Virus record (IMG/VR): IMGVR_UViG_3300009661_000071
Span: 1 to 32,071 of that record
Length of the DNA: 32,071 nucleotides
Direction: 5' to 3' (one strand)
Source: a virus
Taxonomy: Duplodnaviria; Caudoviricetes
Part shown: one piece after another, positions 12,552 to 32,071 of the stretch
Position numbering within the stretch: position 1 is the stretch's first letter
Layout of the letters: the number at the start of each line of letters is the position of its first letter
Notes under the pieces: generated by a model
Database searches by the model: none
Told to the model about the DNA's origin: nothing
The model's input: the letters and a program-made list of their open reading frames with translations, nothing else
Program-made: the position numbers and the translations under genes

Positions 12552-12850
12552 GGGTTCTCGCCCCTCTTTTTAGCCAGCCGGTGGTCTAGCCAGCGTTTGA
12601 AATACTCTTCGATGATCGCGCTGCCCAAAATCCCCAGACCGCACGCGATGCCGATCACCGCCAGTTCAGGCATGTTTTCAAATTGCAGCAGTGCAATCCC
12701 GGCGATCGGTGCGACCGCCGACCCTAAAATTATCCGGCCCAGCAAGGTGCGCACCGTAATGCGCTCATTGCTGACCATGAGTTGCCCCAGACCAATGACC
12801 GCGCCAATTAACAGCAGCTTGGTCAGGAGTGAGGTTTCACCGTTTGGCAT
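12548..12850 (-). CDS. Holin
   Basis: 100 aa with three hydrophobic segments and a basic C-terminus; directly upstream of the endolysin gene. Confidence 0.88.
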   Translation of the reverse strand: MPNGETSLLTKLLLIGAVIGLGQLMVSNERITVRTLLGRIILGSAVAPIAGIALLQFENMPELAVIGIACGLGILGSAIIEEYFKRWLDHRLAKKRGENP

Positions 12851-12854
12851 TGCG

Positions 12855-13310: not shown

Positions 13311-13313
13311 GGG

Positions 13314-14456: not shown

Positions 14457-14461
14457 GATGG

Positions 14462-15157
14462 TTACTCCGTGATGTCCTGCGCGTTGACGTCCCAGCCGAA
14501 GCCGATCGCCTGCAATTGCCGCGCAAGTATTTTGTTGAATTCATCGTTGCTTACGCCTAAAAACACGCGGCCAGGTAAATCAATCGTCCAGGTGCGTTTT
14601 GACGGTGTGCCCCGTAATTTTTTAATCAGCAGCCCCGCCTGGGCCATGCTCATGGTTTCCATGATTTTCTTGCTGGATGGCTTCACCCAGCGTTTTCCCT
14701 GGCGAACTTTGTAGCCCAGCGCGCGCAGCTTTTTAGCCTGTCGCGGCAGCGCGGGCCGGTTGGCCTGCGGTTTTCGCGGGGCCTTATCGGCGCTCATGGT
14801 GGTACGGGTGCCGTTTTGCTGCGCCGCACCGACCACGCCCGCCGCAATGGGCTTCGTCCCGTTGCGGTAATTCCCGCCCTTGAGGTAAATCCTGACGCCC
14901 TGAATTTCGGGCATTTCACGCACGGCCAGCAGTTTAGGCAGGCCGCGCAGCATCTTGCCCTTGCCGCGTTTTCGCGGTGACCAGGGCGTACCGTCCGGGT
15001 TCGCCTGATTCCGCTGGTTGCGTTTGGCCGCCACGATGATGCCGAGTTTGGCGATACGCCATAAAAGGCGCTGGCGTTTCTTCGGCGGTAAATCAGCGGC
15101 GGCCAGTGCCGCACGCAGGTTTTGCAGCTGACGTTTATTCAGTTCACCGCGGATCAC
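14462..15157 (-). CDS. Virion morphogenesis / tail completion protein (gpS-like)
   Basis: Very basic; NQANPDGTPWSPRK and LPGRVFLG motifs. Confidence 0.85.
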   Translation of the reverse strand: MIRGELNKRQLQNLRAALAAADLPPKKRQRLLWRIAKLGIIVAAKRNQRNQANPDGTPWSPRKRGKGKMLRGLPKLLAVREMPEIQGVRIYLKGGNYRNGTKPIAAGVVGAAQQNGTRTTMSADKAPRKPQANRPALPRQAKKLRALGYKVRQGKRWVKPSSKKIMETMSMAQAGLLIKKLRGTPSKRTWTIDLPGRVFLGVSNDEFNKILARQLQAIGFGWDVNAQDITE

Positions 15158-15630
15158 GATTCACCCGCGTGCTGCGTCACTATCTCGGCCTCTGTCGCTG
15201 TCCAGACTTCGGCGCCGACCAGCTCCCAGCGCTCACCCTTGAACGGTATCGCTCCGGTGTTGCTGGGTTTGATGATGATCGGGTCAGCCAGGGCGACCAC
15301 GATGTCCAAAATGCACGAACCTTCATCGTCAAACTCAGGGTCGACCGTGGGGTCGGGAAGATTTAACTGTCCGTGCAGTTCGTTGGCGTACTCATCAATC
15401 CACGCCAACACCAGGGCATACACCACGCCGGGCGAAAAACGCCGGTAAGGGAAGTTGTCCCAGGATAAATGCGCGTTGTATCGCAATATCCCGATGCGCC
15501 TTTGCCCCAGTCCCAGCGCTTTGGCGTTGCGGCTGATCTCGCAATCGTCCATCGCGCTTTCAAACATCTGCATGGCTTCCGGGGGCAGGTTCGCGGTAAT
15601 GAATGCGGTCAGGCTCTCCAACTGGCTCAT
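15154..15630 (-). CDS. Tail completion protein (gpR-like)
   Basis: 158 aa between the gpL- and gpS-like genes; ATGA overlaps with both neighbours. Confidence 0.75.
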   Translation of the reverse strand: MSQLESLTAFITANLPPEAMQMFESAMDDCEISRNAKALGLGQRRIGILRYNAHLSWDNFPYRRFSPGVVYALVLAWIDEYANELHGQLNLPDPTVDPEFDDEGSCILDIVVALADPIIIKPSNTGAIPFKGERWELVGAEVWTATEAEIVTQHAGES

Positions 15631-16100
15631 ATCAGATGCACCCCGACGCGCGGCAGCTGCAACATGTTGCGCATGACGTAAGCCGCCTCGGCCAGCAGGT
15701 TGGCGCGGGTGTCGGTGCTTTCCTGTCCCGGATGCGATTCACGGCGCCCGATGGTGGCGAACTCCCCCAGCAAATCAGCTTTCGCCCTGGCATAGACGGC
15801 CTTTTTGTACTGCGCCGTCAGCTGATTTTCATCGCCCAGCGTTGCACCGGGCACGTCCTTAGCTTTCGTGTTTCCCTTGCCTGTCCAGTAGGTGACCACG
15901 TCGCCCAGCGTGTCGTTGACCTCAGCAATGGCGGCCAGTACTGCCACGCCTGCAATCTCTGGCGGCAGGTCGGCGGGCAGGGTGCGCGATTTCTGAAACT
16001 CGGCGAGGTTCAAATCGGGCCAGAAGGCCACGCCGTTGGTGATCGTGTCGTTCTGATACGTCACCGGCGTGCCGCTGATGCTGAAACTTGGGGCGCTCAT
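15627..16100 (-). CDS. Head completion/stabilisation protein (gpL-like)
   Basis: NGVAFWPDL, YKKAVYARAKADL motifs; start re-assigned to the ATG at 16100 (SD GAGG). Confidence 0.88.
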   Translation of the reverse strand: MSAPSFSISGTPVTYQNDTITNGVAFWPDLNLAEFQKSRTLPADLPPEIAGVAVLAAIAEVNDTLGDVVTYWTGKGNTKAKDVPGATLGDENQLTAQYKKAVYARAKADLLGEFATIGRRESHPGQESTDTRANLLAEAAYVMRNMLQLPRVGVHLI

Positions 16101-16205
16101 CGGGTACACCTCTAAAAATGTGAGAAGCGGGCTAACGGTTTCCACGGCCAAAAAGCTTTACGGGCTTTATGCCTCCACCGCGCCCGCCCCGGCTAGCGGT
16201 AGTCG

Positions 16206-16910
16206 TTACTGCGCGACCAGGCTGTTAATGCGGGCCTGAATTTTTTCGCGCATGGTTTTTACACCGGCGTTTCGGTTGTACTTTTCCGCCTGGGCGAGCA
16301 GGGCGTCGGCCTGTTCCAGCGTGTCGACGTCCTCCACGGCGGTGGCTCGCGGCTTGCCGTTCTCGTCGCGCAGCATGTACAGCCCGGCGAACTTGAACCA
16401 TTTGGCGTTGATGTCTTCATGCAACCGCCACTTGTCGCGGATGTTGTTAAACGTCCGGGTGAAGTAGGGTTCCAGGCTGTGACCGGCTTCCGCCTCGGTG
16501 ATGGCCCATTCCATGACGGTATCGGCCACGAACGCCGGTAAGGTGCTTTTGAAGTTTTCAGGCATGGCCTGACCTTCGGCGATGGCCGCGTCTGCCCAGT
16601 CGAGCGCCTTTTCCATTTCCCCGGTGTCAAACAGCCAGATCACGCAGTACACCAGGGCCGGATTTGCATAACTCTTATCACCGGCGAGGTAGGCTTCTAC
16701 GGTCGGCAACCAACGCGGCAGCAGGTGATCGCGCTTGAACTCGACGCGGTCTTCGGTGCGCGGCAGGCTGCGCAGCTGCGTGACGTCGCTTTGCAGTTCC
16801 AGCTTTTGCAGGTGGAAACTGACCGGAGAGGCGGTGAGCGCTTCGCGGTTGTCCAGCGCTTTGGCGGCCTTAACCTGGGCTCGGTGGCGTTGACACGGGG
16901 ACATGGCCAT
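16206..16910 (-). CDS. Terminase small/endonuclease subunit (gpM-like)
   Basis: MSPCQRHR start, IWLFDTG, AKWFKFAG, NAGVKT motifs; follows the capsid gene. Confidence 0.9.
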   Translation of the reverse strand: MAMSPCQRHRAQVKAAKALDNREALTASPVSFHLQKLELQSDVTQLRSLPRTEDRVEFKRDHLLPRWLPTVEAYLAGDKSYANPALVYCVIWLFDTGEMEKALDWADAAIAEGQAMPENFKSTLPAFVADTVMEWAITEAEAGHSLEPYFTRTFNNIRDKWRLHEDINAKWFKFAGLYMLRDENGKPRATAVEDVDTLEQADALLAQAEKYNRNAGVKTMREKIQARINSLVAQ

Positions 16911-16912
16911 AT

Positions 16913-17950
16913 TTATTCGCCTTCGTTTGGTTTGTTGGTAGCCGCTGGTTCGGTTGTGCCAGTCGCTAACGTCAGTTTGTCGTAAGCGGCATACAGTTCA
17001 TCGTGCTCAACCGCATAACCTTCCATGCGCAGATAGCTGTTTTCAAAGCGCTTGCGGTCATCGTTCCACTCGGCTTTACGCTTACGGGTACCTGCTTGTG
17101 TGTAGATATGCAGGTTGTCCAGGGTAGTGACGGCTAAACGACCTTCCGGCATAAACGGTGGCGTATAGGCAACGCGGCCAGCAATCTGACGGTTGATTAA
17201 TTGCGCGGCCACTTTCTCGGTCGGGCGATCAACCATGTTCATCATGGTGGTGGCGTCAGCGCCGATAAGGTCAGCAGATACCAGAACAACCAGACGCGGA
17301 TCATTGCGGTAAGGCTCATAAATACTGGTATGCACTAAGTCTGTGACCGCTGCGTCGAGGCCCATAAAATCAGCGTTCGGGCCACCAATGGTGATGTCAC
17401 CGGTGATGATTTGCGCGGGTGCTCGGTCTTTTACAAGTTGGTGCCAACCGACGTTGACGTCCTCACCGTTAGGATTTTTATCGGGGTCGGTATCGTCAGC
17501 GGCGCTGATACCGTTGAAGGCGACGCGCAACATGTCGAGCGCAAAGGATTCATTACTGAACGCCTGAATGCGCTGGAAGAACTCGTCTTCGCTGCCGGAA
17601 TTGGCCCAGATAACCAGCAGGGAATAAGGCAGGTATGAGCCTGAATCTGTTTCAACCAGCTTGTAATCGTTGCCATCAACGCCCATCGGGCGTGTGAAGC
17701 GGCCATCTTTTTTACGACCGGTATAAATGCCGGGTTTACCGGTGCTGACAACCTGGCCGTTGACCTGGTCGACGTCCATCACGTTGACCAGGCGTAAGAA
17801 TTCCGACTGTTGCAACAGTGCGTCACGAAGCTGGGTTTCCTTCGGTGGCGTCAGGGAAAAATAACGGGAGGTGCTGTGTTGGCCGTTAGCTTTTGCCAGC
17901 CCTGCGGCGTACTTATGAAGCATCGCCTCGGCTTTGGGGGTTAAACGCAT
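16913..17950 (-). CDS. Major capsid protein, P2 family (gpN-like)
   Basis: ALDMLRVAFNG, NPNGEDVNVGW, TTLDNLHIYTQ motifs. Confidence 0.95.
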   Translation of the reverse strand: MRLTPKAEAMLHKYAAGLAKANGQHSTSRYFSLTPPKETQLRDALLQQSEFLRLVNVMDVDQVNGQVVSTGKPGIYTGRKKDGRFTRPMGVDGNDYKLVETDSGSYLPYSLLVIWANSGSEDEFFQRIQAFSNESFALDMLRVAFNGISAADDTDPDKNPNGEDVNVGWHQLVKDRAPAQIITGDITIGGPNADFMGLDAAVTDLVHTSIYEPYRNDPRLVVLVSADLIGADATTMMNMVDRPTEKVAAQLINRQIAGRVAYTPPFMPEGRLAVTTLDNLHIYTQAGTRKRKAEWNDDRKRFENSYLRMEGYAVEHDELYAAYDKLTLATGTTEPAATNKPNEGE

Positions 17951-17978
17951 AATTTATATTTCCTAAAAAACGAGCGAA

Positions 17979-19070
17979 TTAGACGAAATCAAACGGTTTA
18001 TTACTGCCACCCGGCGCACTGCCAGGGCGTCGCGTCCCGTCGTTTTCCTTCGCTGATAACCTAGTCATGACGTCGGTCAGCTGCGCGGAGAACTGGGTAA
18101 ACACGTCGGTCGGCGTTTGGGCTTTATCTGCTTTACGGCGTTGTGCGCTGAACTGGCGACGCTCACGGCGGGATGCTTTTACCGGTTTGACGTTAAACGC
18201 CTTCATGGCTTTCACCAGATTGGCTTTCGCAACGGTAAATTCTGCCGCTTTGACTTCGTCTTCCGGGTTCTCGGCAACGTCTTGGGCCAGTTCTGCAACC
18301 TGTTCGGCGGCATCCGCGATATTTTCGGCAACGTCGGCGACTTCGTCGGCGGCCAGTTCCGGTGTATCTGCGTCGGTGTTTTCACCTTCGGCAGCTGCCT
18401 GGCCGTCTTGCATCATTTTGAGCATTTGTTCTAAGAGGGCTTTTAACTCATCCATCTTTTGTTCCTCGCCCTCGGTGGGCTTGTTGGTTTCAGTGTCGGT
18501 ATTGGGTTCTGGCGTTGGCGTAAACTCTTTGCGGGAGGAAAATAACTTCGCCCATAAAGAGGATTCTTTCTTTTCAGCCTTATTATTTTTTAACGTGCCG
18601 AGGCTGAACGTTTCTAAACTTCCGCGCGCGGCATCTTTTTCTTCGCCCGCTAAAATGAACTTTAATTTTTCCGTTCCCAGACTGGCGGGAATATCTGTTA
18701 CAGCAAGGCCGAATAAATATTCTTTACCGCTGCCCGCGAAATCAGAAATAAACTCAGCGGAGGTAAATAGCTTTTGCCCCATCCGGTTGGCATCAATTAA
18801 AAACTGATTTGGAATGAGCTGGGCGTAAAGCTTGGTGACGTCGCCTTCGGTTTCCACTTTCAGCGCGTCCACCTCGCCCAGGTTGCAGGTGAATTCGCGT
18901 TCGCCTAAATCATACTGAGGGTGGTGCGGCCAAATCATGGCGGTGTAAGTGTTACGGGTGTAAGTTTCTGCCGCATCATTCAGCCATTGCGCTTCAATGA
19001 CGCGACCGTCTACAGCCTGGCCCGACGTGGCAATGCAAAGCCATTCAGTACGGTAATTAGGTTGCGGCAT
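17979..19070 (-). CDS. Capsid scaffolding protein/protease (gpO-like)
   Basis: IATSGQAVDGR, QKLFTSAE, YLFGLAVTDIPASLGTE motifs; acidic C-terminal scaffold. Confidence 0.93.
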   Translation of the reverse strand: MPQPNYRTEWLCIATSGQAVDGRVIEAQWLNDAAETYTRNTYTAMIWPHHPQYDLGEREFTCNLGEVDALKVETEGDVTKLYAQLIPNQFLIDANRMGQKLFTSAEFISDFAGSGKEYLFGLAVTDIPASLGTEKLKFILAGEEKDAARGSLETFSLGTLKNNKAEKKESSLWAKLFSSRKEFTPTPEPNTDTETNKPTEGEEQKMDELKALLEQMLKMMQDGQAAAEGENTDADTPELAADEVADVAENIADAAEQVAELAQDVAENPEDEVKAAEFTVAKANLVKAMKAFNVKPVKASRRERRQFSAQRRKADKAQTPTDVFTQFSAQLTDVMTRLSAKENDGTRRPGSAPGGSNKPFDFV

Positions 19071-19246
19071 AACTGACCTTAATAATTAATGAATTTATCA
19101 GACGGTATTCTGTGGAGGGCAGTATTACGAATTGAGGGATAACGCGCACCCACTTTATTTCGGGTGCATTCGGATATAAGGCGTTAACCTACTATTGCCG
19201 ATATTTAATGATGAATTGCTTTGTTTTATCCCGTCATAATAGCCGC
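19071..19246. promoter_or_regulatory. Divergent late promoter region (O and P operons)
   Basis: AT-rich divergent intergenic region; candidate -10 elements AATACT (- strand, 19126-19121) and CATAAT (+ strand, 19235-19240), without good -35 elements, as expected for Ogr-activated promoters. Confidence 0.55.
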
Positions 19247-21055
19247 ATGGCTAAATATTCAGATGAAATAAAAGAGGCCGCCCGCGCTTTATATATTAAA
19301 CGCTGGCAGCCGAAAGATATCGCGCAGGAATTAAACCTCCCGCCGCGTACCATTTACCATTGGGCGGACGTCGGCCAGTGGGCATCCCTGCTGCCGGTCG
19401 AATCCGTCGAGCATGTGATCGCCCGGCGCATTGACCAGCTGACGCGCCGGGAGAAAAAAACCTCCCTGGAACTGGAAGAACTCCGCGACCTGGTCGCCCA
19501 GCACGTCAAGCTGATGGCCCAGCACAATAAGCACGCCGAGAAGATGGCCGAGATTAAAGCCAAAAGCACGGCGAGCTATGAGGGCGGACACGGCCCGGAT
19601 GGTGAACCAGAAGAGGGGCGCAAACGCCGCTATAAGAAAAACGACGTGTCCGGCATCACGGCGGAAATGCTCGACGAGTGGGCGCGTGAACATCTGTTCG
19701 ACTACCAGATGCATTGCCGTGAGCACAAGGATGAAGACTGGCGGTTTATCCTGAAAAGCCGCCAGGTAGGCATGACCTACTATTTTGCCTGGGAAGCCTT
19801 CGAAGACGCGGTCATCAGTGGCGACAATCAGGTCTTTTTCTCGGCCTCTCGCGCACAGTCCGAAATCTTCCGCGAATACATCGTCCAGATTGCACAGCAA
19901 CATTTCGGCGTGACGCTGACCGGGAAAAATATCCGACTCAGCAACGGCGCCGTTCTGCGGTTTTTGTCTACCAATGCCAGCACGGCGCAGGGCTTTAACG
20001 GCCACCTGTACGGTGACGAGGTGTTTTGGATCCCGAAATTCACCCGCCTGCACGAAGTGGCGTCAGCCATGGCGACGCATAACAAATTTCGCACGACCTA
20101 TTTTTCAACACCCAGCGCGAAGACTCACCAGGCCTATACCGTGTGGACGGGGGAGGCGTGGAGCGAGGACGACCCGAAACGCAAAGGTAAGGTCTTTCCC
20201 AAAGAGAAGGCATTGCGAGAAGCGGGCATCCGCTGCCCGGATGAAATCTGGCGTTACATCATCACCATGGAAGACGCCATCGAAGGCGGACTCGCCGCCC
20301 TGGTCGACATTGAGCGCCTGCGCAATAAATACAATCCGACCGCCTTCGCCATGCTTTACATGTGCCAGTTCGTCGACAGTAAGGACGCAGTGTTCAAGCT
20401 GGCCGCCCTGGTGGCGTGTGAAGTGGATGCGGGAACCTGGGGAGATTACGACACGACCGCCGCCCGGCCATTTGGAAACCGTGAGGTTTGGGCCGGTTTT
20501 GACCCGTCGCGGTCGGGGGACAATTCCACCTTTGTGATAGTGGCCCCGCCGATACACGACGGCGAGCGCTTCCGCGTTCTCGCCATTTACCAATGGCAGG
20601 GGCTTAATTTCAGCTGGCAGGCCGAGCAGATCAAACAGCTGATGCGCCGATTTAACATCACCTATATCGGCATCGATACGACCGGCATCGGTAAAGGGGT
20701 GTATGACCTGGTGACGAAGTTTGCGCCGCGTGAAGCCAACGCCATTTTGTACAGCGTCGAGAGTAAAAACCGTCTGGTGATGAAGATGATCGACGTGGTG
20801 GAGCGTAAGCGCATCGAGTGGGCCAAAGATGCCCAGGACGAAACGAATAATGAACGCGCCGAAATCCCGGCCAGTTTCATGGCTATACGTCGGACGACAA
20901 CGGCCAGCGGCAACGCGCTGACGTTCGTCGCCGAACGCTCGGACGCCACCGGACACGCGGACGTGTTCTTCGCCATTTCTCACGCCGTGATAAATGAACC
21001 AATCGACTACGAATTTGACCGCCCGTCTACCTGGGCCTTTGGACAAGCAGCATGA
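19247..21055 (+). CDS. Terminase large (ATPase) subunit (gpP-like)
   Basis: N-terminal HTH, LKSRQVGMT Walker A, LYGDEVFW Walker B, GFDPSRSGD nuclease, GHADVFFA; start re-assigned to MAKYS. Confidence 0.95.
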   Translation: MAKYSDEIKEAARALYIKRWQPKDIAQELNLPPRTIYHWADVGQWASLLPVESVEHVIARRIDQLTRREKKTSLELEELRDLVAQHVKLMAQHNKHAEKMAEIKAKSTASYEGGHGPDGEPEEGRKRRYKKNDVSGITAEMLDEWAREHLFDYQMHCREHKDEDWRFILKSRQVGMTYYFAWEAFEDAVISGDNQVFFSASRAQSEIFREYIVQIAQQHFGVTLTGKNIRLSNGAVLRFLSTNASTAQGFNGHLYGDEVFWIPKFTRLHEVASAMATHNKFRTTYFSTPSAKTHQAYTVWTGEAWSEDDPKRKGKVFPKEKALREAGIRCPDEIWRYIITMEDAIEGGLAALVDIERLRNKYNPTAFAMLYMCQFVDSKDAVFKLAALVACEVDAGTWGDYDTTAARPFGNREVWAGFDPSRSGDNSTFVIVAPPIHDGERFRVLAIYQWQGLNFSWQAEQIKQLMRRFNITYIGIDTTGIGKGVYDLVTKFAPREANAILYSVESKNRLVMKMIDVVERKRIEWAKDAQDETNNERAEIPASFMAIRRTTTASGNALTFVAERSDATGHADVFFAISHAVINEPIDYEFDRPSTWAFGQAA

Positions 21056-22119
21056 CAACGAAACAGCGTAAGCAAAAAAAACAGCACGGCGCCGCAGTTG
21101 CGCGACCGAAAACATTTTCCCCGATGGCTGGTAAGGGCAGCGTTATCACCTTCGGCGAACCGGAACCCATTCTCACGACGGGCACGGATTACCTGAATAT
21201 CTGGTATGACAATGCCTATGATCATTGGAGTTTGCCAATTGACCGTATGGCCCTAGCACAGCTGCCGAACCTTAACGGCCAGCACGGCGGCGTGCTGTAT
21301 GCACGGCGTAACATGGTGGCCGGTGGCTATCTGGGGGGCGGGTTGTCCAGTGACCAGGTCGAACAAATGGCTTTCGACTACCTGACCTTCGGGGACGTGG
21401 CCGTTTTGAAAATTCGTAACGTATTTGGGGAGGTGATCGACCTGCTTCCGCTGCCGTCGCTGTATCTGCGTTGCCGAAAAACGGGGGAGTTTGCTGTATT
21501 GCAGGAGGGGCCACCGCTGGTATACGAGCCGCGCGACGTGGTGTTCTTCAAAATGTATGACCCACGCCAACAGGTTTACGGATTGCCGGACTACATCGGC
21601 GGCATCCATTCTGTGTTACTCAACAGTGAGGCGACGATTTTCAGGCGTCGTTACTACAACAACGGCGCACATATGGGCTTTATTCTCTATGCCAATGACC
21701 CGAACATCACCGGCGAAGTGGAAGCCGAAATCAAAACTAAGATTGAGCAGTCCAAAGGGCTGGGCAATTTTCGCAATATGTTTATCAACATTCCGAAAGG
21801 TGATCCGGACGGGGTGAAGCTTTTGCCGGTCGGCGAGGTTAGCGCGAAAGACGAGTTTGCGAATATTAAAGGGATTACCGCACAGGACGTTTTTACTGCC
21901 CACCGATTCCCGGCTGGTCTGGCCGGTATTATCCCGACAAACGGCGCCGTTATGGGGAACCCGGAAACGGCCCGCGAAACCTATCGCAAGGACGAGGTGA
22001 TCCCGCTTCAACGTAAGTTTATGAACGGCATCAACACCGACCGGGAAATCCCTCCACATTTACACCTGAGATTCGACGTCGATATTCCGGTAATTAGCCC
22101 GGATAAGGGCGAAAAATGA
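21052..22119 (+). CDS. Portal protein (gpQ/PBSX family)
   Basis: YGLPDY, RRRYYNNGAHMGFI, GLGNFRNMF, AHRFPAGLAGIIP motifs. Confidence 0.95.
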   Translation: MTTKQRKQKKQHGAAVARPKTFSPMAGKGSVITFGEPEPILTTGTDYLNIWYDNAYDHWSLPIDRMALAQLPNLNGQHGGVLYARRNMVAGGYLGGGLSSDQVEQMAFDYLTFGDVAVLKIRNVFGEVIDLLPLPSLYLRCRKTGEFAVLQEGPPLVYEPRDVVFFKMYDPRQQVYGLPDYIGGIHSVLLNSEATIFRRRYYNNGAHMGFILYANDPNITGEVEAEIKTKIEQSKGLGNFRNMFINIPKGDPDGVKLLPVGEVSAKDEFANIKGITAQDVFTAHRFPAGLAGIIPTNGAVMGNPETARETYRKDEVIPLQRKFMNGINTDREIPPHLHLRFDVDIPVISPDKGEK

Positions 22120-22175
22120 GCGCAGATAAGTTAAAATCAGGCTCATTATTGGCACTGGCGTGCGGGGGTGGAATC

Positions 22176-22445
22176 ATGCGCATCTTTAAAATTAATTGTC
22201 CTGAGTGTGGATCACCGGCCACCATTCGTAAATCTGACTGGAAAGATAAGAAACTGGCGGATTTATACTGCGGCTGTTCAGAAGTTGAATGCGGCCATAC
22301 GTTCGTTTTTAACGCGACGTTCTCACACTCACTGAGTCCCAGCGGGCTAACTGGCAACAAGTTGGTGAAATTCCTGATTGAACAGCTTAAGCCAGATGAA
22401 AAACAATTAGCTCTGGGTTTATTACAAAATCACCTTGAAAATTAA
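22176..22445 (+). CDS. ogr: Ogr/Delta-family C4 zinc-finger late transcription activator
   Basis: CPECG...LYCGCSEVECGHTF...HSLSPS; start re-assigned to the ATG at 22176 after GGGGGTGG. Confidence 0.9.
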   Translation: MRIFKINCPECGSPATIRKSDWKDKKLADLYCGCSEVECGHTFVFNATFSHSLSPSGLTGNKLVKFLIEQLKPDEKQLALGLLQNHLEN

Positions 22446-22456
22446 AAGGAAGTAAT

Positions 22457-24406
22457 ATGGTTATCTGGTCTAAAAATATCATTTCAACAGATAAGTCTTT
22501 GGTTAGAACATGCGCAACAAAACTTACTGAATTGTTTATTTCTGCTGGTTTTACTAAAGCAGCAAGTATTGTCGCACAATTGAAAACTCAAAGCCTTGCT
22601 GAAAGTTACGAAAATAAAGTCATTTCCAGAATTATGACATTCAAGACTTTAAACGGAGATGGTCGGGATATAAGCTTAAATGATATTTATGTTCCGTTGA
22701 GTATAAGCAATCGTGTTCGTGGTCAAGAAATATTGATCACTGATGGAACTACTTTGAAAGTAGATGGTTGCCTTTCTATAACTGGTAGTGCAGGTCAGGG
22801 CAAAACAACTATAATGAGAAAGTTGTTTATCGAGGAAATGATTGCAGCCGATAGATTTCCTTTTTTTATTACTTTGAGGGATTGTGATTACGATAAAAAC
22901 CTTAGCTGCATCGATTTGGTGATGGAACATTTATTGAGTTATGGGGTTTGTTGTGAGCCTTCAGGTGTTAAAGAATTACTGGCTTCTGGCAGGGGAGTTT
23001 TTTATTTTGATGGTTTTGATGAGGTGGATATCTCAAGGCGATTAAAGGTTTTAAAGCTAATAACTGACTCATATTACATTTACTCATGCTCATCTATTAT
23101 AACGACGCGGCCTGATACTGAGTTATCTAAGACCTCTGGAGTTGAAGATTATTATGTGGATAAATTAAGTCTTAAAACCGTAAAGTCGATAGTCCATAAA
23201 GTAGTGCCTGAAGTTTCTTTCGCAAATACAATTATTGACACTATCGAAAAGAATGCTTTTTTAAGTGAAACAATAAATACTCCAATACTAACTAGTATTT
23301 TTATATTAACTTACCTGTCATTCACTGATGAGCCAAGATCCATTACTGATTTTTACGGTGTATTATTTTTATCGTTAATGTATAAGCATGATAAAAATAA
23401 AAACTTTACTAGGAATAAATTAACTAATTTATCCAATAACAAACTAGAAACCTGCTTCTCAATATTTAGCTATTTGAGTTTTATTAAAGGTTGCAACTCA
23501 TTTAATGAGGTTTCATTAAGAGATTTTTTTCACCAAGCTACATCTTTTATCAGTAAAGAAGATATTTCTGAGTTAATAATGGATGATGTTGTTAATGGAA
23601 CAAATATAGTTGTTATGGATGGTTATGACCGCTATGTATACATTCATCGTTCAATCCAAGAGTTTTTTACAGCTAAAGCTATTGTAACCTTCGATGAAGC
23701 AACTAAGGAAAAGTTTTATAATAATATTTTAGAAGATAAAACGAAGGCTCGTTTTTTTGAGCAGGTACTTAAAATGCTCTCATCTATAGATGATAAGAAT
23801 TTTGCAAGATTTTATCTTTTGCCAAAACTTAAATCACTAAACTTATTAAGTGATGATGGTTACATTAAAACTTTTAAAGGGCCTGATTTCCGAAAAATAA
23901 TAGAATCTACTGCTATTGCTATAGCAATAGATAATGGGGTTTACAGTATAGGTATGATGACTAATACAGACGATAATCTACCCGATTATCTATTAGATTT
24001 AGAGGGTATACACCAAACAATAACTTACAGCACTGATGACTTTCAGACATCTTTAATTAACCTTTTAGATGATGACATACAAAGTTTAATAAATGGATAC
24101 ATGAAGAATCGTCAAATTTCTTTAGATGAATTTAATAATAATCATGTAATGAACTTCTCAAGTGATAATCCAGACGCATTTGATACTCAAGCAGGGATAG
24201 AAATGATCGGTCAAAATGACTCTAGAATAGCATCTTATTTTGATGGCGGTATAGTTACTCAGGAATTTGAAGATGAATTCGCAAGGAGGGTTAATGGCCA
24301 ACTTAATGCCATAAACATCTTCCTAGATGATAATATTTATAAATACAATCATGGTAACTTATCAATGATACACATGCTTGATCCATTGGGTGGTGATGGT
24401 TACTAA
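22457..24406 (+). CDS. NACHT-domain (STAND) NTPase, bacterial NLR-related; putative anti-phage protein
   Basis: LNDIYVPL pre-NACHT motif, Walker A GSAGQGKT, Walker B VFYFDGFDE, sensor IITTRP, NTPIL, winged-helix HRSIQEFFTA; AT-rich; SD AAGGA. Confidence 0.9.
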   Translation: MVIWSKNIISTDKSLVRTCATKLTELFISAGFTKAASIVAQLKTQSLAESYENKVISRIMTFKTLNGDGRDISLNDIYVPLSISNRVRGQEILITDGTTLKVDGCLSITGSAGQGKTTIMRKLFIEEMIAADRFPFFITLRDCDYDKNLSCIDLVMEHLLSYGVCCEPSGVKELLASGRGVFYFDGFDEVDISRRLKVLKLITDSYYIYSCSSIITTRPDTELSKTSGVEDYYVDKLSLKTVKSIVHKVVPEVSFANTIIDTIEKNAFLSETINTPILTSIFILTYLSFTDEPRSITDFYGVLFLSLMYKHDKNKNFTRNKLTNLSNNKLETCFSIFSYLSFIKGCNSFNEVSLRDFFHQATSFISKEDISELIMDDVVNGTNIVVMDGYDRYVYIHRSIQEFFTAKAIVTFDEATKEKFYNNILEDKTKARFFEQVLKMLSSIDDKNFARFYLLPKLKSLNLLSDDGYIKTFKGPDFRKIIESTAIAIAIDNGVYSIGMMTNTDDNLPDYLLDLEGIHQTITYSTDDFQTSLINLLDDDIQSLINGYMKNRQISLDEFNNNHVMNFSSDNPDAFDTQAGIEMIGQNDSRIASYFDGGIVTQEFEDEFARRVNGQLNAINIFLDDNIYKYNHGNLSMIHMLDPLGGDGY

Positions 24407-24447
24407 TAACTCCCTGCGACCATTTTAAACTCTCTCTTAACATGTTC

Positions 24448-24470
24448 GCCCCGCCAAGTACGGGGCTTTA
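24448..24470 (+). terminator. Hairpin between the convergent cassette genes (probable terminator)
   Basis: GCCCCG-N7-CGGGGC followed by TTTA; short U-tract. Confidence 0.5.
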
Positions 24471-24497
24471 AAGAAAGATATAGATTTTAGTTTTTTG

Positions 24498-25334
24498 TTA
24501 GGCGGGGTTGGAAGGTCTTAATTTTTCAATTATTTTACTCTGTGCCCCGAAGCATTCAATTGGCAAAAATAAACAATGCTTTTTGTGAATCATTTTATTA
24601 AAAGGGATATTGTCTAATAGTTTGTACTTTTGAATGTACTTTATAAAGGGTTTTCCATGTTCAGATAAGCAATTATACATAAGAAGTAAGAGTTCGTAGT
24701 CTGAAATTTGCGCTCTTACTATCCCTGAGTACTTGATTTTATCAGTCATCGAAATGTTTGAATCATCAATATATTTAAAGATATTATATAAAAATCTAAA
24801 GTAATGACCTAAATCCTGTTGTTTGGATTCATAAAAAGTGTCAAATGCTCGACCGAGTTGTTGAATATATAGCGGTGTATCAGAAAAAACCGCATATTCG
24901 GCCACGCTATTACTAGAGCATTCATTAGAAAAAGGTCCTTTGTAAAAATAAGAAAAAACATCTCTACCAGTATGTATTATAATATTTTTCTGTTCACCTC
25001 TTGAGACCCTTACATCCATATCCTTGATGAGGCTTTGGAGCAGATTCAGCATTTGAAAAAGATTGTTTTCGAATTTTTGGGTGTTGAGGAATTCGTCTTG
25101 TTTAGCAGAGTCAGACTTTAGTTTTTTTAAAGATTCATTTTGTGAGTGAACGGTAAATACTACGCCTATAAATGCGAATGCTGAAAAAACAGATGTAATA
25201 ACGCCCCAAGAGTCTCCAAACTGACCCAACTCCTCTCTTGACCAACCAGTAAACGGGCCTTCGAGATACGAACTGGCCAAACAGTATAAAATTAATGCTA
25301 AGAATGTCACAAAGCACAATAAAAATTTCATCAT
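24498..25334 (-). CDS. Putative phage abortive infection protein (putAbiC/PF16872-like), two N-terminal TM segments
   Basis: LGQFGDSWG, FENNLFQML, GRDVF, LGHYFRFLYNIFKYID, KYSGIVRAQISDYELLLLMYNCL motifs recalled for this family; AT-rich. Confidence 0.8.
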   Translation of the reverse strand: MMKFLLCFVTFLALILYCLASSYLEGPFTGWSREELGQFGDSWGVITSVFSAFAFIGVVFTVHSQNESLKKLKSDSAKQDEFLNTQKFENNLFQMLNLLQSLIKDMDVRVSRGEQKNIIIHTGRDVFSYFYKGPFSNECSSNSVAEYAVFSDTPLYIQQLGRAFDTFYESKQQDLGHYFRFLYNIFKYIDDSNISMTDKIKYSGIVRAQISDYELLLLMYNCLSEHGKPFIKYIQKYKLLDNIPFNKMIHKKHCLFLPIECFGAQSKIIEKLRPSNPA

Positions 25335-25508
25335 TAACAGTTCCTGACCAAAAGCTCATTTTACACACGCATCAGTTCGCTTATCTAATGCTAAAAATAT
25401 TATTTTGAGTACAAAGTTGGAATGTTTATTACTGCTTAACTAGACGGGAAGTCGTTGCGTTGTTCTTCATCATAGTAACATAGTCTATGAGAAGCCAAAT
25501 ATTCGCTT

Positions 25509-27776
25509 TCAACTACTGATGGCTAGCCCAGGTGATGTTGGTTGGTTTCGAATCATATCCTTCATCTTGCTACGCCCATCATCAATGATTACATCAAAAC
25601 CCGCACTATCCATGAGAGAGTTAGGGTTATTAATTATCTGATTTTCGATGGGATCTCCTTCACTCGTAGAGTTATTGACAGAACTCCAAGGGACGGCGGG
25701 GCCGTCCGGTAAGGTCAAAACCTCCTGGGTTTCGCGTATATCTTCGGCGGGTTGCGTCTTGAGTTTGGCGACAATCGTCCATGTTTTAAGACGGGTACAA
25801 ACGCGGGAATCCTCGCCCAGACGCGGCGAGAAAATACCGAAAATCTTCTCTACGATTTCGCCGTAAGCATTCGGCTTGTCAGCGTCGTGGTAAGCCAGGC
25901 GCACAGCGTAACTTTCGCGGGGAATGAGCACGCCGCCCTGTCTCATGATGTAGGTAGCAAAACAACCTGCATCCGCCGCCGCCATTACCGCGTCCATTTC
26001 AGGGTCAGATAACAGGCGCTGGCCGCGCTTATACCCGCGCGACTTAATCAGTTCAGCTTGCAGCGCATTATTCAGTTTGCGCAGTTCCCGCCATACCGTG
26101 ACCGGTGGTGTGCCGATTGGCTGGTACTGACGGATGCGGTGACGGGATGCCCAGGCCATTGCCAGGCGTGCAGTTTCTTTCAGTGGCTTGCCGGTTTCAT
26201 GGTCTTTTTCGCCGTCCAGTGCGTAACCGTCGATATTCTTCGAAATGTATTTCGCTATATAAGCGGTTGCGCTGCCTTTCTTAGGGTCTAAGCGTTTGGC
26301 CGTAAAGCGGGCGCCGGTGCGTTTACCCAGTTCGGCGCGGTCTTCTTTGACGGCATAACCGCGCATGATGCTGGTGATCGTGTTGCGTTCTTCTGGGCGC
26401 ATAAACAGCAAAAGATGCCAATGCGGTGTTTCGTCGTGGTGTGGCTCGGCCACACGGAAACCGTAAATCCGCAAGCCTTCCCGCCCCAGCTTCGAACCGA
26501 TGCGGCTCCAAAGATTGGTAAGGTATTTTTGCGCCTGCTTAACGTCGCTGTGATTCCATTTCGGGTTAGCGTGGCCGCTGGCATTCGTGGCGTGGTATTT
26601 CGACGGGCAGGTGATGGTATAAAAAACGCCGACGTCGCCACGTGACTGGGCGACAAATTCTATGCCTTTCATGCGGGCCATAAGTTCGTGACGACGGATC
26701 GCCGGATTACTGATACTGGCATCGACCATTGATTCCAGAGATACGCGGTTCCCTTCGTCGTCCTCCAGTTCGTGTGATTTAAAAAACTCACGGTTTTTCC
26801 TGCGTTGCTCCAGCCAGTCGGCCAGCGCGTCGCGGCTGATGTAGGGCGTGGCCCTTTTGTGAACATTGCCCATAGCGCGGAGTTGGTTTTCCCTCCAGTC
26901 GCCACGCAGCCGCCACAATTGGCGCTCCCACCAGTCTGGGTTAATCATGCGAGCCATAGCTGACACGAAAACAGCACGGTCAAGCGGTTCAGGCGGCAGT
27001 TCAGGCGGATTGAATAACGGGCTGATTACCTTCCAGAACGGTGGCCGCACGCGCAACGCGTGAACCTCCACGGCCATATGACGATAAATAAATAACAGTT
27101 CAGCGTCAGGAAGGGCGGCGGCGTTACCACCGCGTTCGTCTATGGCCGTCGTGAACATTTCATTCAGACGCCCGGCGATTTCGTTACCCAGCGTTTTGAC
27201 TCTGGATTTAGAGAACTCAGCCAGGTGGCAATATGACGGGCGGTAATACGCGATGAATTCGGAGTCGTGGCCGGTGCTGACGCCGTGGTATTTACGGACG
27301 GCCTCCAGGCGCAACAATGCATTCTTGATGGTGCCCATCAAAAACGCATTGGTGTGCTTAGTCCCGCGATTATTGCGAAGCCAGGCTATTTTTTTTTCAA
27401 AGGAGGCGCGGATAAAAAACGGCTGTTCATGGAAACGTGCTTCGACACCTTCAGGTGATTTTGACCATGTAGACTGTTCGCGCTCATATGCGCTTCGCTC
27501 GGCAGCTGCGCGGGCTTGAAGCAGATCGCGCAATACCGTGCTGATTTCGTCAAATTCTTGTACGCCTTTTTTTTCCAGGCGTTTGAGGTGAGCAACAACG
27601 GCGGGATGCTGTTCAACAGGCAAGGTGGCAATAACCGGCGATGGTACTTTGTCTACGCCAATCGCTTTTAAAGGGGCATTCCACGTATAAACCCCAGCGA
27701 ATGTGTCAGCATTGCCGGGGTATACAGGTGGTGGACTGGGGGCCGTGCGGCCCCTGTCGTTAGTTTTATTGTTAAT
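25509..27776 (-). CDS. A: Rolling-circle replication initiator, P2 gpA family
   Basis: FYTITCPSKYH, HUH motif EPHHDETPHWH, catalytic AYIAKYISKNIDG; frame open 51 codons upstream of the track start (27623) to an ATT at 27776; start uncertain. Confidence 0.93.
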   Translation of the reverse strand: MNNKTNDRGRTAPSPPPVYPGNADTFAGVYTWNAPLKAIGVDKVPSPVIATLPVEQHPAVVAHLKRLEKKGVQEFDEISTVLRDLLQARAAAERSAYEREQSTWSKSPEGVEARFHEQPFFIRASFEKKIAWLRNNRGTKHTNAFLMGTIKNALLRLEAVRKYHGVSTGHDSEFIAYYRPSYCHLAEFSKSRVKTLGNEIAGRLNEMFTTAIDERGGNAAALPDAELLFIYRHMAVEVHALRVRPPFWKVISPLFNPPELPPEPLDRAVFVSAMARMINPDWWERQLWRLRGDWRENQLRAMGNVHKRATPYISRDALADWLEQRRKNREFFKSHELEDDEGNRVSLESMVDASISNPAIRRHELMARMKGIEFVAQSRGDVGVFYTITCPSKYHATNASGHANPKWNHSDVKQAQKYLTNLWSRIGSKLGREGLRIYGFRVAEPHHDETPHWHLLLFMRPEERNTITSIMRGYAVKEDRAELGKRTGARFTAKRLDPKKGSATAYIAKYISKNIDGYALDGEKDHETGKPLKETARLAMAWASRHRIRQYQPIGTPPVTVWRELRKLNNALQAELIKSRGYKRGQRLLSDPEMDAVMAAADAGCFATYIMRQGGVLIPRESYAVRLAYHDADKPNAYGEIVEKIFGIFSPRLGEDSRVCTRLKTWTIVAKLKTQPAEDIRETQEVLTLPDGPAVPWSSVNNSTSEGDPIENQIINNPNSLMDSAGFDVIIDDGRSKMKDMIRNQPTSPGLAISS
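25668..25697 (-). other. Replication origin (gpA nick site) inside gene A
   Basis: - strand GCCGTCCCTTGGAGTTCTGTCAATAACTCT closely matches the P2/186 ori (CCTCG^GAGT(C/T)CTGTCAATAAC). Confidence 0.8.
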
Positions 27777-28192: not shown

Positions 28193-28417
28193 CTACGCGA
28201 AAATACCCATCAACCGGGCGAACCAACGACGTTTATTTTGAGGGCGGGACATGAAAGGTAGACGCCGGCCGATTACGAATTGCACATCTGTAGCTTTAGG
28301 CTGGAAGAAACGACCGTCTGGGGTTTCAATCCATCCGCGCTGGTGAGCACGATGCGTAACTTGCTGGCCTTTGGTCAGCATATTAGCCAGGGAAGGGCAC
28401 TGGATTAGTTCCATCAT
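28193..28417 (-). CDS. Fil-like (DUF2724-type) early protein
   Basis: PSLANML...GWIETPDGRFFQP resembles the phage 186 Fil family; TAATG coupling to the upstream gene. Confidence 0.65.
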   Translation of the reverse strand: MMELIQCPSLANMLTKGQQVTHRAHQRGWIETPDGRFFQPKATDVQFVIGRRLPFMSRPQNKRRWFARLMGIFA

Positions 28418-28671
28418 TAAGCCTCGTCGAAAATAACGGTGAAAGGTTCGGGCATTCTGTGTGACTTGCTCCAAAGTTCCGCTGTTGCACTCAGTGTTAC
28501 GGCCTCTGCGCTGCCTGCGTAAGCGGCGGCTGCGGCAATGTCACGCAGCTTTTCACAGGCCCAGTAGATTTCGCTTTCTGAGTGTGCCGGTGCTTTTACG
28601 GTCGCAACTAACTGGCGACGTTCGTACATGTTCAGAACTTTGTTACCAGCTGCGAGAAATGGGGTACGCAT
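28417..28671 (-). CDS. Hypothetical early protein (84 aa)
   Basis: ATG at 28671 with SD GGAG; translationally coupled to the next gene. Confidence 0.65.
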   Translation of the reverse strand: MRTPFLAAGNKVLNMYERRQLVATVKAPAHSESEIYWACEKLRDIAAAAAYAGSAEAVTLSATAELWSKSHRMPEPFTVIFDEA

Positions 28672-28808
28672 ATTGATCTCCATCAATTTTAAAAGATGCC
28701 GAGATATAGCCTGCACCCGGCACGTTTTCCCTGTGATAACATAGGCATGCCTGTGAAACTTTCGAGAGCAGAGCAGGCACAACATTTACCAACAGAAAAG
28801 GAATATCT

Positions 28809-29060
28809 ATGGATAGCCAACAAATGAGGGAATTCCTCAACACAGCTGAAGAATCCCGCAAAAAGCATTCGACAGGTGACAGGCTTTTCGCACTTGAAGT
28901 TATGGTTTGCGCAATTGGCGCCTCACTTGAAGGCAGCAGCAGAGAGAGTTTTTTGAAAACTATGAATTCTTTCTCTACGACTCTTGATCCAATGAAAGAC
29001 TCTACGGTCAAAGCAATTGCAGATCTGAATGTTTTAAGCTCAGATTTTATCGACCTGTAA
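28809..29060 (+). CDS. Hypothetical protein (83 aa), oriented against the early operon
   Basis: SD AAGGA 5 nt before the ATG; extended -10-like TGATAACAT at 28734-28742; fills a gap on the - strand. Confidence 0.65.
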   Translation: MDSQQMREFLNTAEESRKKHSTGDRLFALEVMVCAIGASLEGSSRESFLKTMNSFSTTLDPMKDSTVKAIADLNVLSSDFIDL

Positions 29061-29507
29061 ACCTTTCCAATTAACATTTAGACCGGAAATAAACTCCTCT
29101 AATTGTTGCTTAATAACAGCCTCTTTTTCGAGGCTGTTCATTCCCCAAGTATCAATCGTGTAATGAATGTTTCCCGCATGGGCACCATGAAAATAGAGTT
29201 TTTGGCAATTGGGGATTTTATTATCAGTTTGTTTTGTATTATCCATTTTTATCTCCGAGGATATTTTATTTGAATCTGCTGGTGTCTTTGTTAGTCGGAA
29301 TTTATTTAACCGCATTGAATTCATATGCAACAAACCATCAATGTACCCAGTCGCCTGGGCCTGCGCGTCGAATAACCCGAAAGATTGCTCGCCGAGTGTG
29401 ACCTCATAACGGGCAATCTTGCTGATAACCGTTTTCGGGCGGCGGGTAATGATGAAGCCGCGATAAATGGATGAATGGCGGCTTAGTTCTTGAATTGAAT
29501 AGTGCAT
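29040..29507 (-). CDS. Early protein, N-terminal half DUF4761-like; possibly two fused ORFs
   Basis: ELSRHSSIYRGFII...ATGYID motif directly after cox; in-frame internal ATG at 29246 with SD GGAG. Confidence 0.6.
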   Translation of the reverse strand: MHYSIQELSRHSSIYRGFIITRRPKTVISKIARYEVTLGEQSFGLFDAQAQATGYIDGLLHMNSMRLNKFRLTKTPADSNKISSEIKMDNTKQTDNKIPNCQKLYFHGAHAGNIHYTIDTWGMNSLEKEAVIKQQLEEFISGLNVNWKGLQVDKI

Positions 29508-30315: not shown

Positions 30316-31335
30316 ATGTCGATTAAAACGCTCAACGGTGGACGTTACAAAGTGGATTTACGACCTCAAGGAACCGCAGGACGGCGCGTTCAGAGGGTTT
30401 TTGATAAAAAAGCCGATGCCGTGGCTTTTGAAAAATACGTGCTGGCGAATTTCCATAATAAGGAATGGATGGCAAAACCTACAGATGCTAGGCGTTTATC
30501 TGACCTTATCGAACCTTGGTGGGAATTCCACGGTCGCAATTTGGGGTTCGGCCAAAAACGGAAAAGGGCGTTACAGCGTCTTGCGAGCGGGATGGGAGAT
30601 CCATTGGTGATTAAGCTTGATAAAAATCTGCTGCTCAAATACCGCTCCGAAAGGCTTTTTCAGGGCGTTAAGGCATCCACCATCAATAGAGATATGACAG
30701 TGTTGAGTGGGATGTTTAATGTTCTGATAGAGGCTGGCAATTTTCACGGTGAGCATCCAATGAGGTCCATCAAGCCCATCAAGGAAAAGAACGTAGAAAT
30801 GACCTACCTGACTTCAGAAGAAATCAGCAGGTTACTCGACGCGCTAAAAGATGACTCTGACGCTTATCGCTTAACAATCCTGTGTCTCAGTACGGGCGCG
30901 CGATGGGGTGAAGCCACTAAGCTTAAGGCTGAAAATATTATGAATTGCAGAGTTACCTTTATCGAAACCAAGAACGGCCATAAGCGGACGGTGCCTGTTT
31001 CTTCTTTGGTTCAGGAGACTGTTAAAAATGCTAAGAAAGGGCCGCTATTTGGCGTGACCTATGCCAAGTATCGTGAAATGCTGCGTGCGATCAAACCTGA
31101 TTTGCCGAGAGGGCAATCAGTGCACGTACTTAGGCATACCTTTGCAGCGCATTTTATGATGAACGGAGGGAATATAATTTCACTCCAAAGGATATTAGGG
31201 CATGCCAGCATTCAGCAAACTATGACTTATGCGCATCTTGCTCCAGACTACTTACAGGATGCTACGGCGTTAAATCCCTTGCGCGGAGGCATCCACATTT
31301 CATCCACTTTATCGGGTTTTGACGGCGAACCCTGA
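30316..31335 (+). CDS. int: Phage integrase (tyrosine recombinase)
   Basis: STGARWGE, TKNG, HVLRHTFA, LGH...TMTYAHL catalytic motifs; start re-assigned to the ATG at 30316 (SD GGAGG). Confidence 0.96.
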   Translation: MSIKTLNGGRYKVDLRPQGTAGRRVQRVFDKKADAVAFEKYVLANFHNKEWMAKPTDARRLSDLIEPWWEFHGRNLGFGQKRKRALQRLASGMGDPLVIKLDKNLLLKYRSERLFQGVKASTINRDMTVLSGMFNVLIEAGNFHGEHPMRSIKPIKEKNVEMTYLTSEEISRLLDALKDDSDAYRLTILCLSTGARWGEATKLKAENIMNCRVTFIETKNGHKRTVPVSSLVQETVKNAKKGPLFGVTYAKYREMLRAIKPDLPRGQSVHVLRHTFAAHFMMNGGNIISLQRILGHASIQQTMTYAHLAPDYLQDATALNPLRGGIHISSTLSGFDGEP

Positions 31336-31420
31336 AACCCCATAATTGGATAACTGTATGAATTTAAGCGTAATCGCTTATTCTAGCTGGTAAGATTAGG
31401 CCCGTAAATCAGGCCTTTAA
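31290..31420. other. Putative int-proximal attachment region
   Basis: Tandem CATCCACATTT/CATCCACTTT (31290-31310), like P2 arm sites; IHF-like TAACTGTATGAAT (31351-31363); short inverted repeats at 31365-31380 and 31398-31416; core not confirmable without the second copy. Confidence 0.5.
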
Positions 31421-31434
31421 ATCTGGAGGTTAAA

Positions 31435-32071
31435 GTGAAAATAAAAAAAACACTCAGCTTATTAGCTGGCCCAACAATTTTAATCCTTGCCCTACTGCCA
31501 CTACGTAGTTTTTCGAGTGAATACATTCATTCTCACTATCATAAACATAGTAAACACAATAACAACTCACCATCAATGAATGGCGACGCTAATGGTGGTA
31601 AAGGTGGTGATGGCGGTAGTGGTAATAATTCTTCCGGAGGTCGAGGTGGAGACGGTGGTGTCAATGGAGGCAATGGTGGTAACGGAGAAAATGGTGGTAA
31701 CAAAAATAATTCACCTGGAAGAAATGGGGTTGATGGACACAATGGCATTAATGGTCAGAACGGTTCTGATAAAACTTATCCCATAGATTATAAACTAGAC
31801 CAAAAGCCACCCAATAATTCAGGAATGATTTTTACTGCTGATGGTGGGAATGGTGTGAATGGTGGCAACGGGGGTAACGGTCCGAATGGCGGGAATGGAG
31901 GAAATGGAGGAAATGGAGGAAATGGAGGAAATGCAGGGAGCGGAGATGGATCTAATGGAGGAAATGGGGGGAACGGCGGACAGAATGGAGCCAATGGGGG
32001 AAATGGCGGAGACGGTGGTAGCGGTTCTAACTCATCAGGGGGAGATGGCGGGGATGGGGGTAACGGACAAA
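31435..32071 (+). CDS. Secreted glycine-rich (GGN/GGD repeat) protein, 3' end beyond window
   Basis: Translated by hand: GTG start with SD TGGAGG; signal-peptide-like MKIKKTLSLLAGPTILILALLPLRSFS; His-rich patch; then GGx repeats; no stop in 212 codons. Confidence 0.85.
   Translation, partial: MKIKKTLSLLAGPTILILALLPLRSFSSEYIHSHYHKHSKHNNNSPSMNGDANGGKGGDGGSGNNSSGGRGGDGGVNGGNGGNGENGGNKNNSPGRNGVDGHNGINGQNGSDKTYPIDYKLDQKPPNNSGMIFTADGGNGVNGGNGGNGPNGGNGGNGGNGGNGGNAGSGDGSNGGNGGNGGQNGANGGNGGDGGSGSNSSGGDGGDGGNGQ
31894..31929 (+). repeat. Perfect 9-bp tandem repeat (AATGGAGGA)x4 encoding (NGG)4
   Basis: Read directly from the sequence. Confidence 0.9.

Follow-up and report, generated by a model that had tools for sequence, protein, structure and literature searches.

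What do two unrelated genes do side by side in the cargo slot of a prophage: does each defend the lysogen on its own, or do they form one split system in which a sensor without an effector of its own signals to a membrane protein? The question is raised by a viral stretch of 32,071 nucleotides (nt) (IMG/VR record IMGVR_UViG_3300009661_000071, positions 1 to 32,071; hereafter the window), in which an AT-rich block between the late activator gene ogr and a phage replication origin holds a gene for a NACHT ATPase and, converging on it, a gene for an AbiC-type membrane protein. An initial annotation of the sequence had put forward both options. We read the block as a swap-in cassette whose two genes act as two separate abortive-infection defences protecting the lysogen, which is the probable though by no means certain answer; separate action is favoured because each gene has relatives in loci where the other is missing. 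The features on which the argument turns are:

22415..25664, no strand: swappable AT-rich cassette in the hotspot between portal/ogr and gene A, ~3.25 kb long (GC 33%; junctions from 58 sibling loci)
22457..24406, + strand: bNACHT-like NLR-related ATPase of 649 amino acids (aa) (PF05729, E 1.1e-9, above the cut-off)
24498..25334, − strand: AbiC/AbiP-group membrane protein of 278 aa (PF16872, E 2.7e-23)

A putAbiC gene stood beside the NACHT gene in 0 of the best 80 of 108 GTDB loci and in 0 of 39 non-identical viral loci (119 loci in all), and a NACHT gene was found in 0 of 33 non-identical viral putAbiC loci; flanks of at least 1.5 kb on both sides were available for 82 of 120 NACHT loci, and at least 2.2 kb downstream for 30 of 41 AbiC loci. 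A 19-bit putAbiC-like fragment lying 9 kb from the NACHT gene in locus L107 was excluded from this count. The family-wide conserved linkage of an obligate two-gene sensor–effector system is therefore absent, and linkage is found in one narrow lineage only. Recurring neighbours of the NACHT relatives were phage core genes, and in six loci (L084, L085, L092–L094 and L097) the NACHT relative fills a portal–gene A gap of 2.3–2.5 kb, which leaves no room for an AbiC-sized gene; two of these, L084 and L085, have NACHT alone in the slot and belong to the window's own NACHT subclade (see below). Relatives of putAbiC were located before Q antiterminators or beside integrases, and putAbiC-bearing genomes numbered 7, 2 and 3 in samples of 401, 151 and 151, with loci reaching 1.5 kb to each side. 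In the tables of Rousset 2022 (PMC9122126), putAbiC occurs at least 57 times and NACHT 0 times among the rows listed for P2 in E. coli, and NACHT occurs 87 times and putAbiC 0 times for P4. Of the two options first proposed, independent genes is thus the better supported, since the relatives are found apart. Recombination in ogr and at the origin would move everything between them as one block, so that the two genes would travel together, and the narrow linkage would reflect co-inheritance rather than coupling.

The block that would be moved in this way is delimited by its flanks:

22116..22445, + strand: Ogr/Delta late activator, the left flank, after the portal gene (PF04606, E 5e-16)
25665..25700, − strand: P2-type rolling-circle origin within the 3' end of gene A (located by aligning the annotated nick site of P2)

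By its Pfam matches, the window is a P2-family prophage in which the tail module is HP1-like and ogr follows the portal gene. Its closest named phages by DNA are Salmonella SW5, SW3 and SI7 and Cronobacter ESSI-2, and the host element is an HP1/ESSI-2-like P2-family prophage. The GC content of positions 22400–25668 is 33.3% vs 54.3% in the remaining window, and GC at third codon positions is 0.26 and 0.33 for the two cassette genes vs 0.63 for the portal gene. Both cassette genes are intact, and the NACHT gene starts 11 nt past the ogr stop. Junctions were read from 58 sibling loci fetched by ogr protein, 53 of which reach gene A and 5 of which stop earlier; one contig supplies two of the loci and there are several near-identical ones, so these counts are not independent. 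Sibling similarity stops at 22399–22430 (25 matches stopping at 22416) and restarts at 25665/6 in 45 matches, the right junction being the identical base in 41 of ~50 sibling matches, and in contigs of relatives 22400–25656/25665 is skipped or replaced. The final 10–15 ogr codons fall within the swapped DNA. On the right, the block is flanked by the 3' end of replication gene A (PF05840 match), with the nick-equivalent at ~25687; the cassette ends ~22 nt past it and the cassette side supplies the final ~50 codons of gene A, which are thus exchanged with every cassette. The nickase may set the right border of the hotspot. The AT-rich block of ~3.2 kb with two intact convergent genes that had been described between ogr and the origin is therefore real, and the limits given for it, 22400 and 25668, were correct within ~20 bases.

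Of the 53 ogr-anchored loci reaching gene A, two are copies identical to the window, and neither gene is present in any of the remaining 51. Their slots measure 13 to 3,594 nt and differ greatly in gene content, and 13 of 32 representative cargo proteins (hand-picked from 55) matched PADLOC models, among them PD-T4-2-like, SoFic, Thoeris B, KAP NTPase and methylase. Lying between portal and gene A and filled with variable AT-rich DNA, the slot corresponds to the gpA–gpQ hotspot of P2-like phages, a documented defence hotspot (Rousset 2022; PMC9122126), as had been proposed for this block. Many hotspot loci carry more than one system and cargo swaps fast (Moura de Sousa 2026, PMC13586616; PMC9122126). 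A NACHT plus putAbiC arrangement is not among the rows listed of the published P2 hotspot table, and our literature search, which included term searches of the Rousset 2022 and Moura de Sousa 2026 supplements, found no paper on the pair; PMC13581612 left the reading of the cassette unaltered. Other cargo in sibling slots includes Dam-like methylases and, in one sibling phage (L194, 8530–9585), an Hcp gene with a Tlde1-domain gene, which together resemble a type VI secretion effector pair.

The first cassette gene was correctly recognised as a NACHT gene from the outset: beside the PF05729 match, it has the motifs and the fold of the family. Its product consists of an N-terminal extension (residues ~1–45), a NACHT module with HD1/WHD to ~445 and a C-terminal domain (446–649). 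Walker A (GSAGQGKT, with K116), Walker B (DGFDE, 185–189) and R218 are invariant in 24 aligned sequences, and the protein possesses the Walker A, Walker B, HD1 and winged helix of a NACHT STAND NTPase. Its AlphaFold model (pLDDT 83.7) matches the fold of NLRC4/NOD2 (E 2e-12) and has two to three helices at its N-terminus and a compact domain at its C-terminus, with residues 1–12 modelled at pLDDT <50. Hydropathy indicated no hydrophobic transmembrane segment, and Pfam matches were to NTPase families only, with neither an effector domain of enzymatic or adaptor type nor a tandem-repeat sensor; no PADLOC model matched the protein. Its identity to three tested single-gene defences is 29% (bNACHT01), 34% (bNACHT12) and 27% (bNACHT23) over 430–480 residues (reference sequences WP_015632533.1, WP_021519735.1 and WP_000433597.1, respectively, from plasmid records). 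Mean family identity is 17% for residues 446–649 vs 43–48% for 101–445, and by this measure the C-terminal ~200 residues diverge as described for SNaCT domains; the SNaCT Pfam models gave no match, and the Atlas gave weak leads only (TM 0.53; a cluster with 11% SNaCT5). Compared with a 59% identical relative (P0002), the core is 63–75% identical and the ends 41–44%, the pattern of a constrained ATPase.

FastTree analysis placed the protein within a 27-member subclade (support 1.0), which is the sister of the bNACHT01/12/23 group. Two midpoint-rooted trees, built from 122 and 119 core sequences without members of other published clades, give this sister relation supports of 0.92 and 0.79. Among the sequences retrieved, the subclade appears to contain no experimentally characterised member. 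On the sister side, bNACHT01 defends as a single gene, requires its Walker A lysine K115, which aligns with K116 of the window protein, and belongs to a clade without fused effectors (Kibby et al., 10.1101/2022.07.19.500537). A 639-aa protein (L176) considered as a candidate for bNACHT11 was rejected, as 0 published residue positions matched.

The second gene proved to be what had been suspected, a putAbiC-like protein with two membrane-spanning segments. Its PF16872 score is 82.7 bits against a cut-off of 22, and PADLOC matched it to AbiP (E 6.1e-14) and AbiC (E 4.6e-9). Hydropathy located two hydrophobic segments (residues 4–22 and 44–62), helical in the model, which provide the N-terminal membrane anchor of the AbiC/AbiP group; the mostly helical model (pLDDT 88.1) has a long helix to residue 105 and a helical putAbiC domain at 171–247. 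Foldseek returned no match to this model at E ≤ 0.001 and VIA-align returned generic helical hairpins only (Z ≤ 7.6), and no sequence relative was found in the PDB. The family comprises 15,301 representatives at E ≤ 0.001; the best 150 of these are 193–344 aa long and therefore unfused, and a search for longer fused forms found none, which is weak evidence. A 2026 review (PMC13064643) groups AbiC, with two transmembrane helices, with AbiP, with one, each being a single-gene defence, and describes AbiP as binding nucleic acid and as triggered by a phage tail protein; nucleic-acid binding together with an abortive phenotype is demonstrated for AbiP only, according to that review. Members outside Lactococcus seem to be named by homology only, and a search of main texts for PF16872/putAbiC found no paper. 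The ESM Atlas also holds a 74-member cluster, mostly Bacteroidota, in which putAbiC is fused to AAA_17/AAA_18 P-loop domains. The closest putAbiC relatives (L124–L129 and L133–L135) come from lambdoid phages, where they directly precede a Q antiterminator or a comparable regulator and often follow an HNH-type gene; this constitutes a second recurrent slot of the family.

Taken as two separate defences, the genes would work as follows. The NACHT protein would stay ADP-bound at first; once a phage protein is bound by its variable C-terminal domain, it would exchange to ATP, assemble a wheel-like oligomer and kill the cell through clustered N-terminal helices, comparable to the plasmolysis caused by bNACHT11, here with a variant N-terminus. 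The AbiC-type protein, anchored in the inner membrane by its two helices and triggered by a phage protein, would halt infection alone, perhaps by binding nucleic acid like lactococcal AbiP. Both would be expected to tolerate the prophage's own proteins. The reported behaviour of bNACHT11 matters here: its C-terminal domain binds phage proteins, it forms a heptamer with ATP, and it kills by plasmolysis, in a manner dependent on osmolarity, via a 45-residue N-terminal extension with the consensus MDPIT, in which D2A and P3A abolish defence (Robbins et al., 10.1101/2024.12.17.629029); a related MEPIS motif has also been described (10.1101/2024.11.07.622273). The window protein had been called effector-less. 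That holds in so far as it has no enzymatic effector domain; it does not imply a missing partner, because short NACHT proteins of the bNACHT11 type kill via their own N-terminal extension of ~45 residues.

Several observations weigh against two separate defences. The anti-phage role of both proteins is predicted from characterised relatives, the counted loci are not independent (several are near-identical phages), and no intermediate NACHT relatives were found in the collections, where the best non-identical loci reach ≤41%. The window protein starts MVIWSK and thus has neither D2 nor P3 of the MDPIT/MEPIS type, and its first 18 residues have a hydrophobicity of 0.05 vs 0.20–0.56 in six relatives. 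The pair also recurs. Run X14 contains a 4,833-nt contig spanning the whole cassette at ~95% identity over both genes, and the divergent relatives P0003 (NACHT, 45%) and P0037 (AbiC, 60%) share a source with two contigs, the longest of 3,583 nt. In run X15, joints of equal depth (19.8) link patches at the ogr end, in NACHT (23084–23121 and 23318–23355) and in AbiC (24769–24811 and 25108 onward), in that order; the patches are taken as one contig because their depth is shared, and are probably one divergent copy of the pair, P0003 with P0037. A further couple, P0001 (NACHT, 94%) and P0035 (AbiC, 98%), agrees in its longest contig, 9,756 nt; among 34 × 119 values there were no contig coincidences other than these two, where ~0.06 would be expected by chance. 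In run X19, NACHT pieces are covered and the AbiC gene is not, at a depth of ~4 at which the uncovered part is no evidence. Searches of viral contigs with P0036 recovered the window's own copies only and with P0003 nothing, and E. coli genomes gave no match in the search for intermediate relatives.

This recurrence, at 95% DNA identity and probably also at 45%/60% protein identity, is what speaks for a coupled system that arose in a small lineage, in which NACHT senses and oligomerises and the AbiC-type protein is the effector, or each boosts the other. The identities of the closest relatives rank in parallel (94/59/45% and 98/69/60%), the NACHT N-terminus is weakly hydrophobic and without D2/P3, and functional chimeras melded from components of different systems are reported from P2/P4 hotspots (PMC13586616); the putAbiC–P-loop fusion cluster (AAA_17/18) of the Atlas is a lead only. 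Coupling is nevertheless unlikely in our judgement. Outside the lineage, all 119 and all 33 loci are without the partner; P0003, the probable divergent partner, retains D2 (MDVLIP), so that pairing does not track motif loss; stand-alone members of the subclade (L084, L085 and L087) are also without D2/P3; and one sense transcript is impossible for convergent genes. P0002 (on a 3,504-nt contig) and the 69% identical AbiC relative P0036 have no matching partner row, an absence from the table only. Complex prediction of both proteins with alignments scored 0.00 twice, which is neither support for nor evidence against binding. The split system originally envisaged, now specified as a new split NLR in which a clade-14-type NACHT without an MDPIT motif of its own signals to an AbiC-type membrane protein, is improbable to the same degree: broad co-occurrence failed, and some room is left to the idea because the NACHT protein has no D2/P3 and the pair recurs in a narrow lineage.

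The same N-terminus might instead signal decay, with the AbiC-type protein the one working gene and NACHT a passenger with a decayed effector or a decoy for phage inhibitors; the missing D2/P3, the low hydrophobicity and the poorly modelled residues 1–12 fit this. The NACHT frame, however, is intact with all listed invariant residues present, its core and ends diverge as in a constrained ATPase, and defence pseudogenes are reported to be rare in P2 (PMC13586616). An acid is absent at positions 2–3 in 20 of 27 subclade members vs 3 of 34 members with a clear start on the bNACHT01 side, so the D2/P3-less start looks like a family variant rather than decay; the start picker took an internal Met for bNACHT23 (annotated start MEPLT), and the true motif contrast is slightly sharper. 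We regard a single active gene, too, as a doubtful prospect. Least probable of all, and only a slim chance in our view, is lysogenic-conversion cargo with a role in stress or membrane physiology rather than defence: the methylases and the Hcp–Tlde1 pair in sibling slots and the naming of putAbiC by homology allow for it, but those relatives of either gene that have been characterised act against phages, and the slot is documented as a hotspot for defence. Two separate abortive-infection defences therefore remain our favoured reading. Elsewhere, the contig that carries sibling locus L221 bears a same-subclade NACHT gene (L087, 9950–11839; 38%, start MGTLSV) directly after the integrase, and its ogr slot holds other genes.

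Between and upstream of the two genes, two minor features were noted:

24448..24466, no strand: GC-rich hairpin of 6–7 bp between the converging 3' ends (fold z-scores)
25469..25498, − strand: promoter-like site upstream of the AbiC-type gene, a weak candidate (promoter scan)

The hairpin noted at first between the genes is present, with fold z-scores of −2.1 (+) and −2.7 (−) for a 45-nt piece and −1.4/−1.7 for the whole 111-nt gap. A role as bidirectional intrinsic terminator is unsupported, there being no U-tract long enough for a terminator-scan listing, and RNA contigs cross the hairpin. The promoter scan gave 17 sites vs 14.5 expected by chance, which is not significant, and the terminator scan was also at chance level; RNA contigs end near the promoter-like site at 25462, 25504 and 25517.

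Six metatranscriptome runs contain 80–98% of cassette words; all are from soil and one year, and they may represent one campaign. In the three of three compared, a single contig runs from 22155–22177, near the candidate ogr ATG at 22176 that is likely the actual start, to 25462–25517, whereas the contig of the DNA run extends beyond both ends. The late genes (12100–22089) appear in the metatranscriptomes as short pieces of depth 0–3 vs 11–36 on the cassette; the DNA-run depth is flat at 10–17, and the repressor and integrase are also covered. This hints at transcription in the lysogen from both sides, through ogr and NACHT on the left and through the AbiC-type gene on the right; it is a hint and no measurement of expression, because the runs were picked for containing the cassette and the contigs show neither strand nor level. 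Loose contig ends common to RNA and DNA runs at 25581 and 28081 suggest that the same runs contain a second, related prophage carrying different cargo. At 28600–29120, AT-richer early-region open reading frames (ORFs; 28417–28785 and 28643–29077, both −) are RNA-covered in all three metatranscriptomes and match no Pfam or PHROG family; they are possibly another lysogen-expressed accessory gene. Right after the integrase, a 242-aa ORF (31435–32071, +, continuing in L157 at 18979–19707) has a signal-peptide-like start and long Gly-Asn-Gly repeats, and is followed by a second Gly-rich ORF (134 aa) and a 247-aa ORF that is lysozyme-like by motif reading. There is no Pfam or PHROG match here, and RNA contigs cover 31035–31923.

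As separate genes, the two are further candidates of known kinds. The novelty would lie in the NACHT subclade, to judge from the sequences: the acid needed for bNACHT11 killing is absent in most members, yet several stand alone in defence slots, which bears on whether MDPIT/MEPIS is truly required or a variant N-terminus kills in the same way. With the AbiC-type gene, the unsolved AbiC/P mechanism would extend to a Gram-negative host. Were the two coupled, the cassette would be a natural case in which a hotspot has made one system out of two unrelated defences; a split NLR, if true, would supply a sensor for the decades-old AbiC/P family and a bacterial NLR that traded its built-in effector for a separate one.

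Set beside known systems, the NACHT protein resembles the clade-14-type bNACHT01, bNACHT12 and bNACHT23 in length class, short N-terminal extension, Walker A lysine (115/116), DGFDE and a short, fast-diverging C-terminal domain; it differs in belonging to a sister subclade, in matching no SNaCT Pfam model and in its N-terminus (MVIWSK vs MDII, MDLV and MEPL). It shares with bNACHT11 the lack of an enzymatic effector domain, and the reported K115 and R214 spacing fits K116 and R218, a comparison by published residue positions only, whereas the MDPIT motif is absent. The AbiC-type protein is like lactococcal AbiC/AbiP (PMC13064643) in its profile matches and, as in AbiC, in two N-terminal transmembrane helices followed by a helical extra-membrane domain; unlike them, it is encoded by a Gram-negative prophage, is distant in sequence and adjoins a NACHT gene. 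The cassette itself agrees with the gpA–gpQ hotspot in position, size (reported mean 3.2 kb), frequent multiple systems and rapid exchange (PMC9122126; PMC13586616), and putAbiC is already among the cargo listed there (PMC9122126), whereas the window has an HP1/ESSI-2-like layout with ogr after the portal gene.

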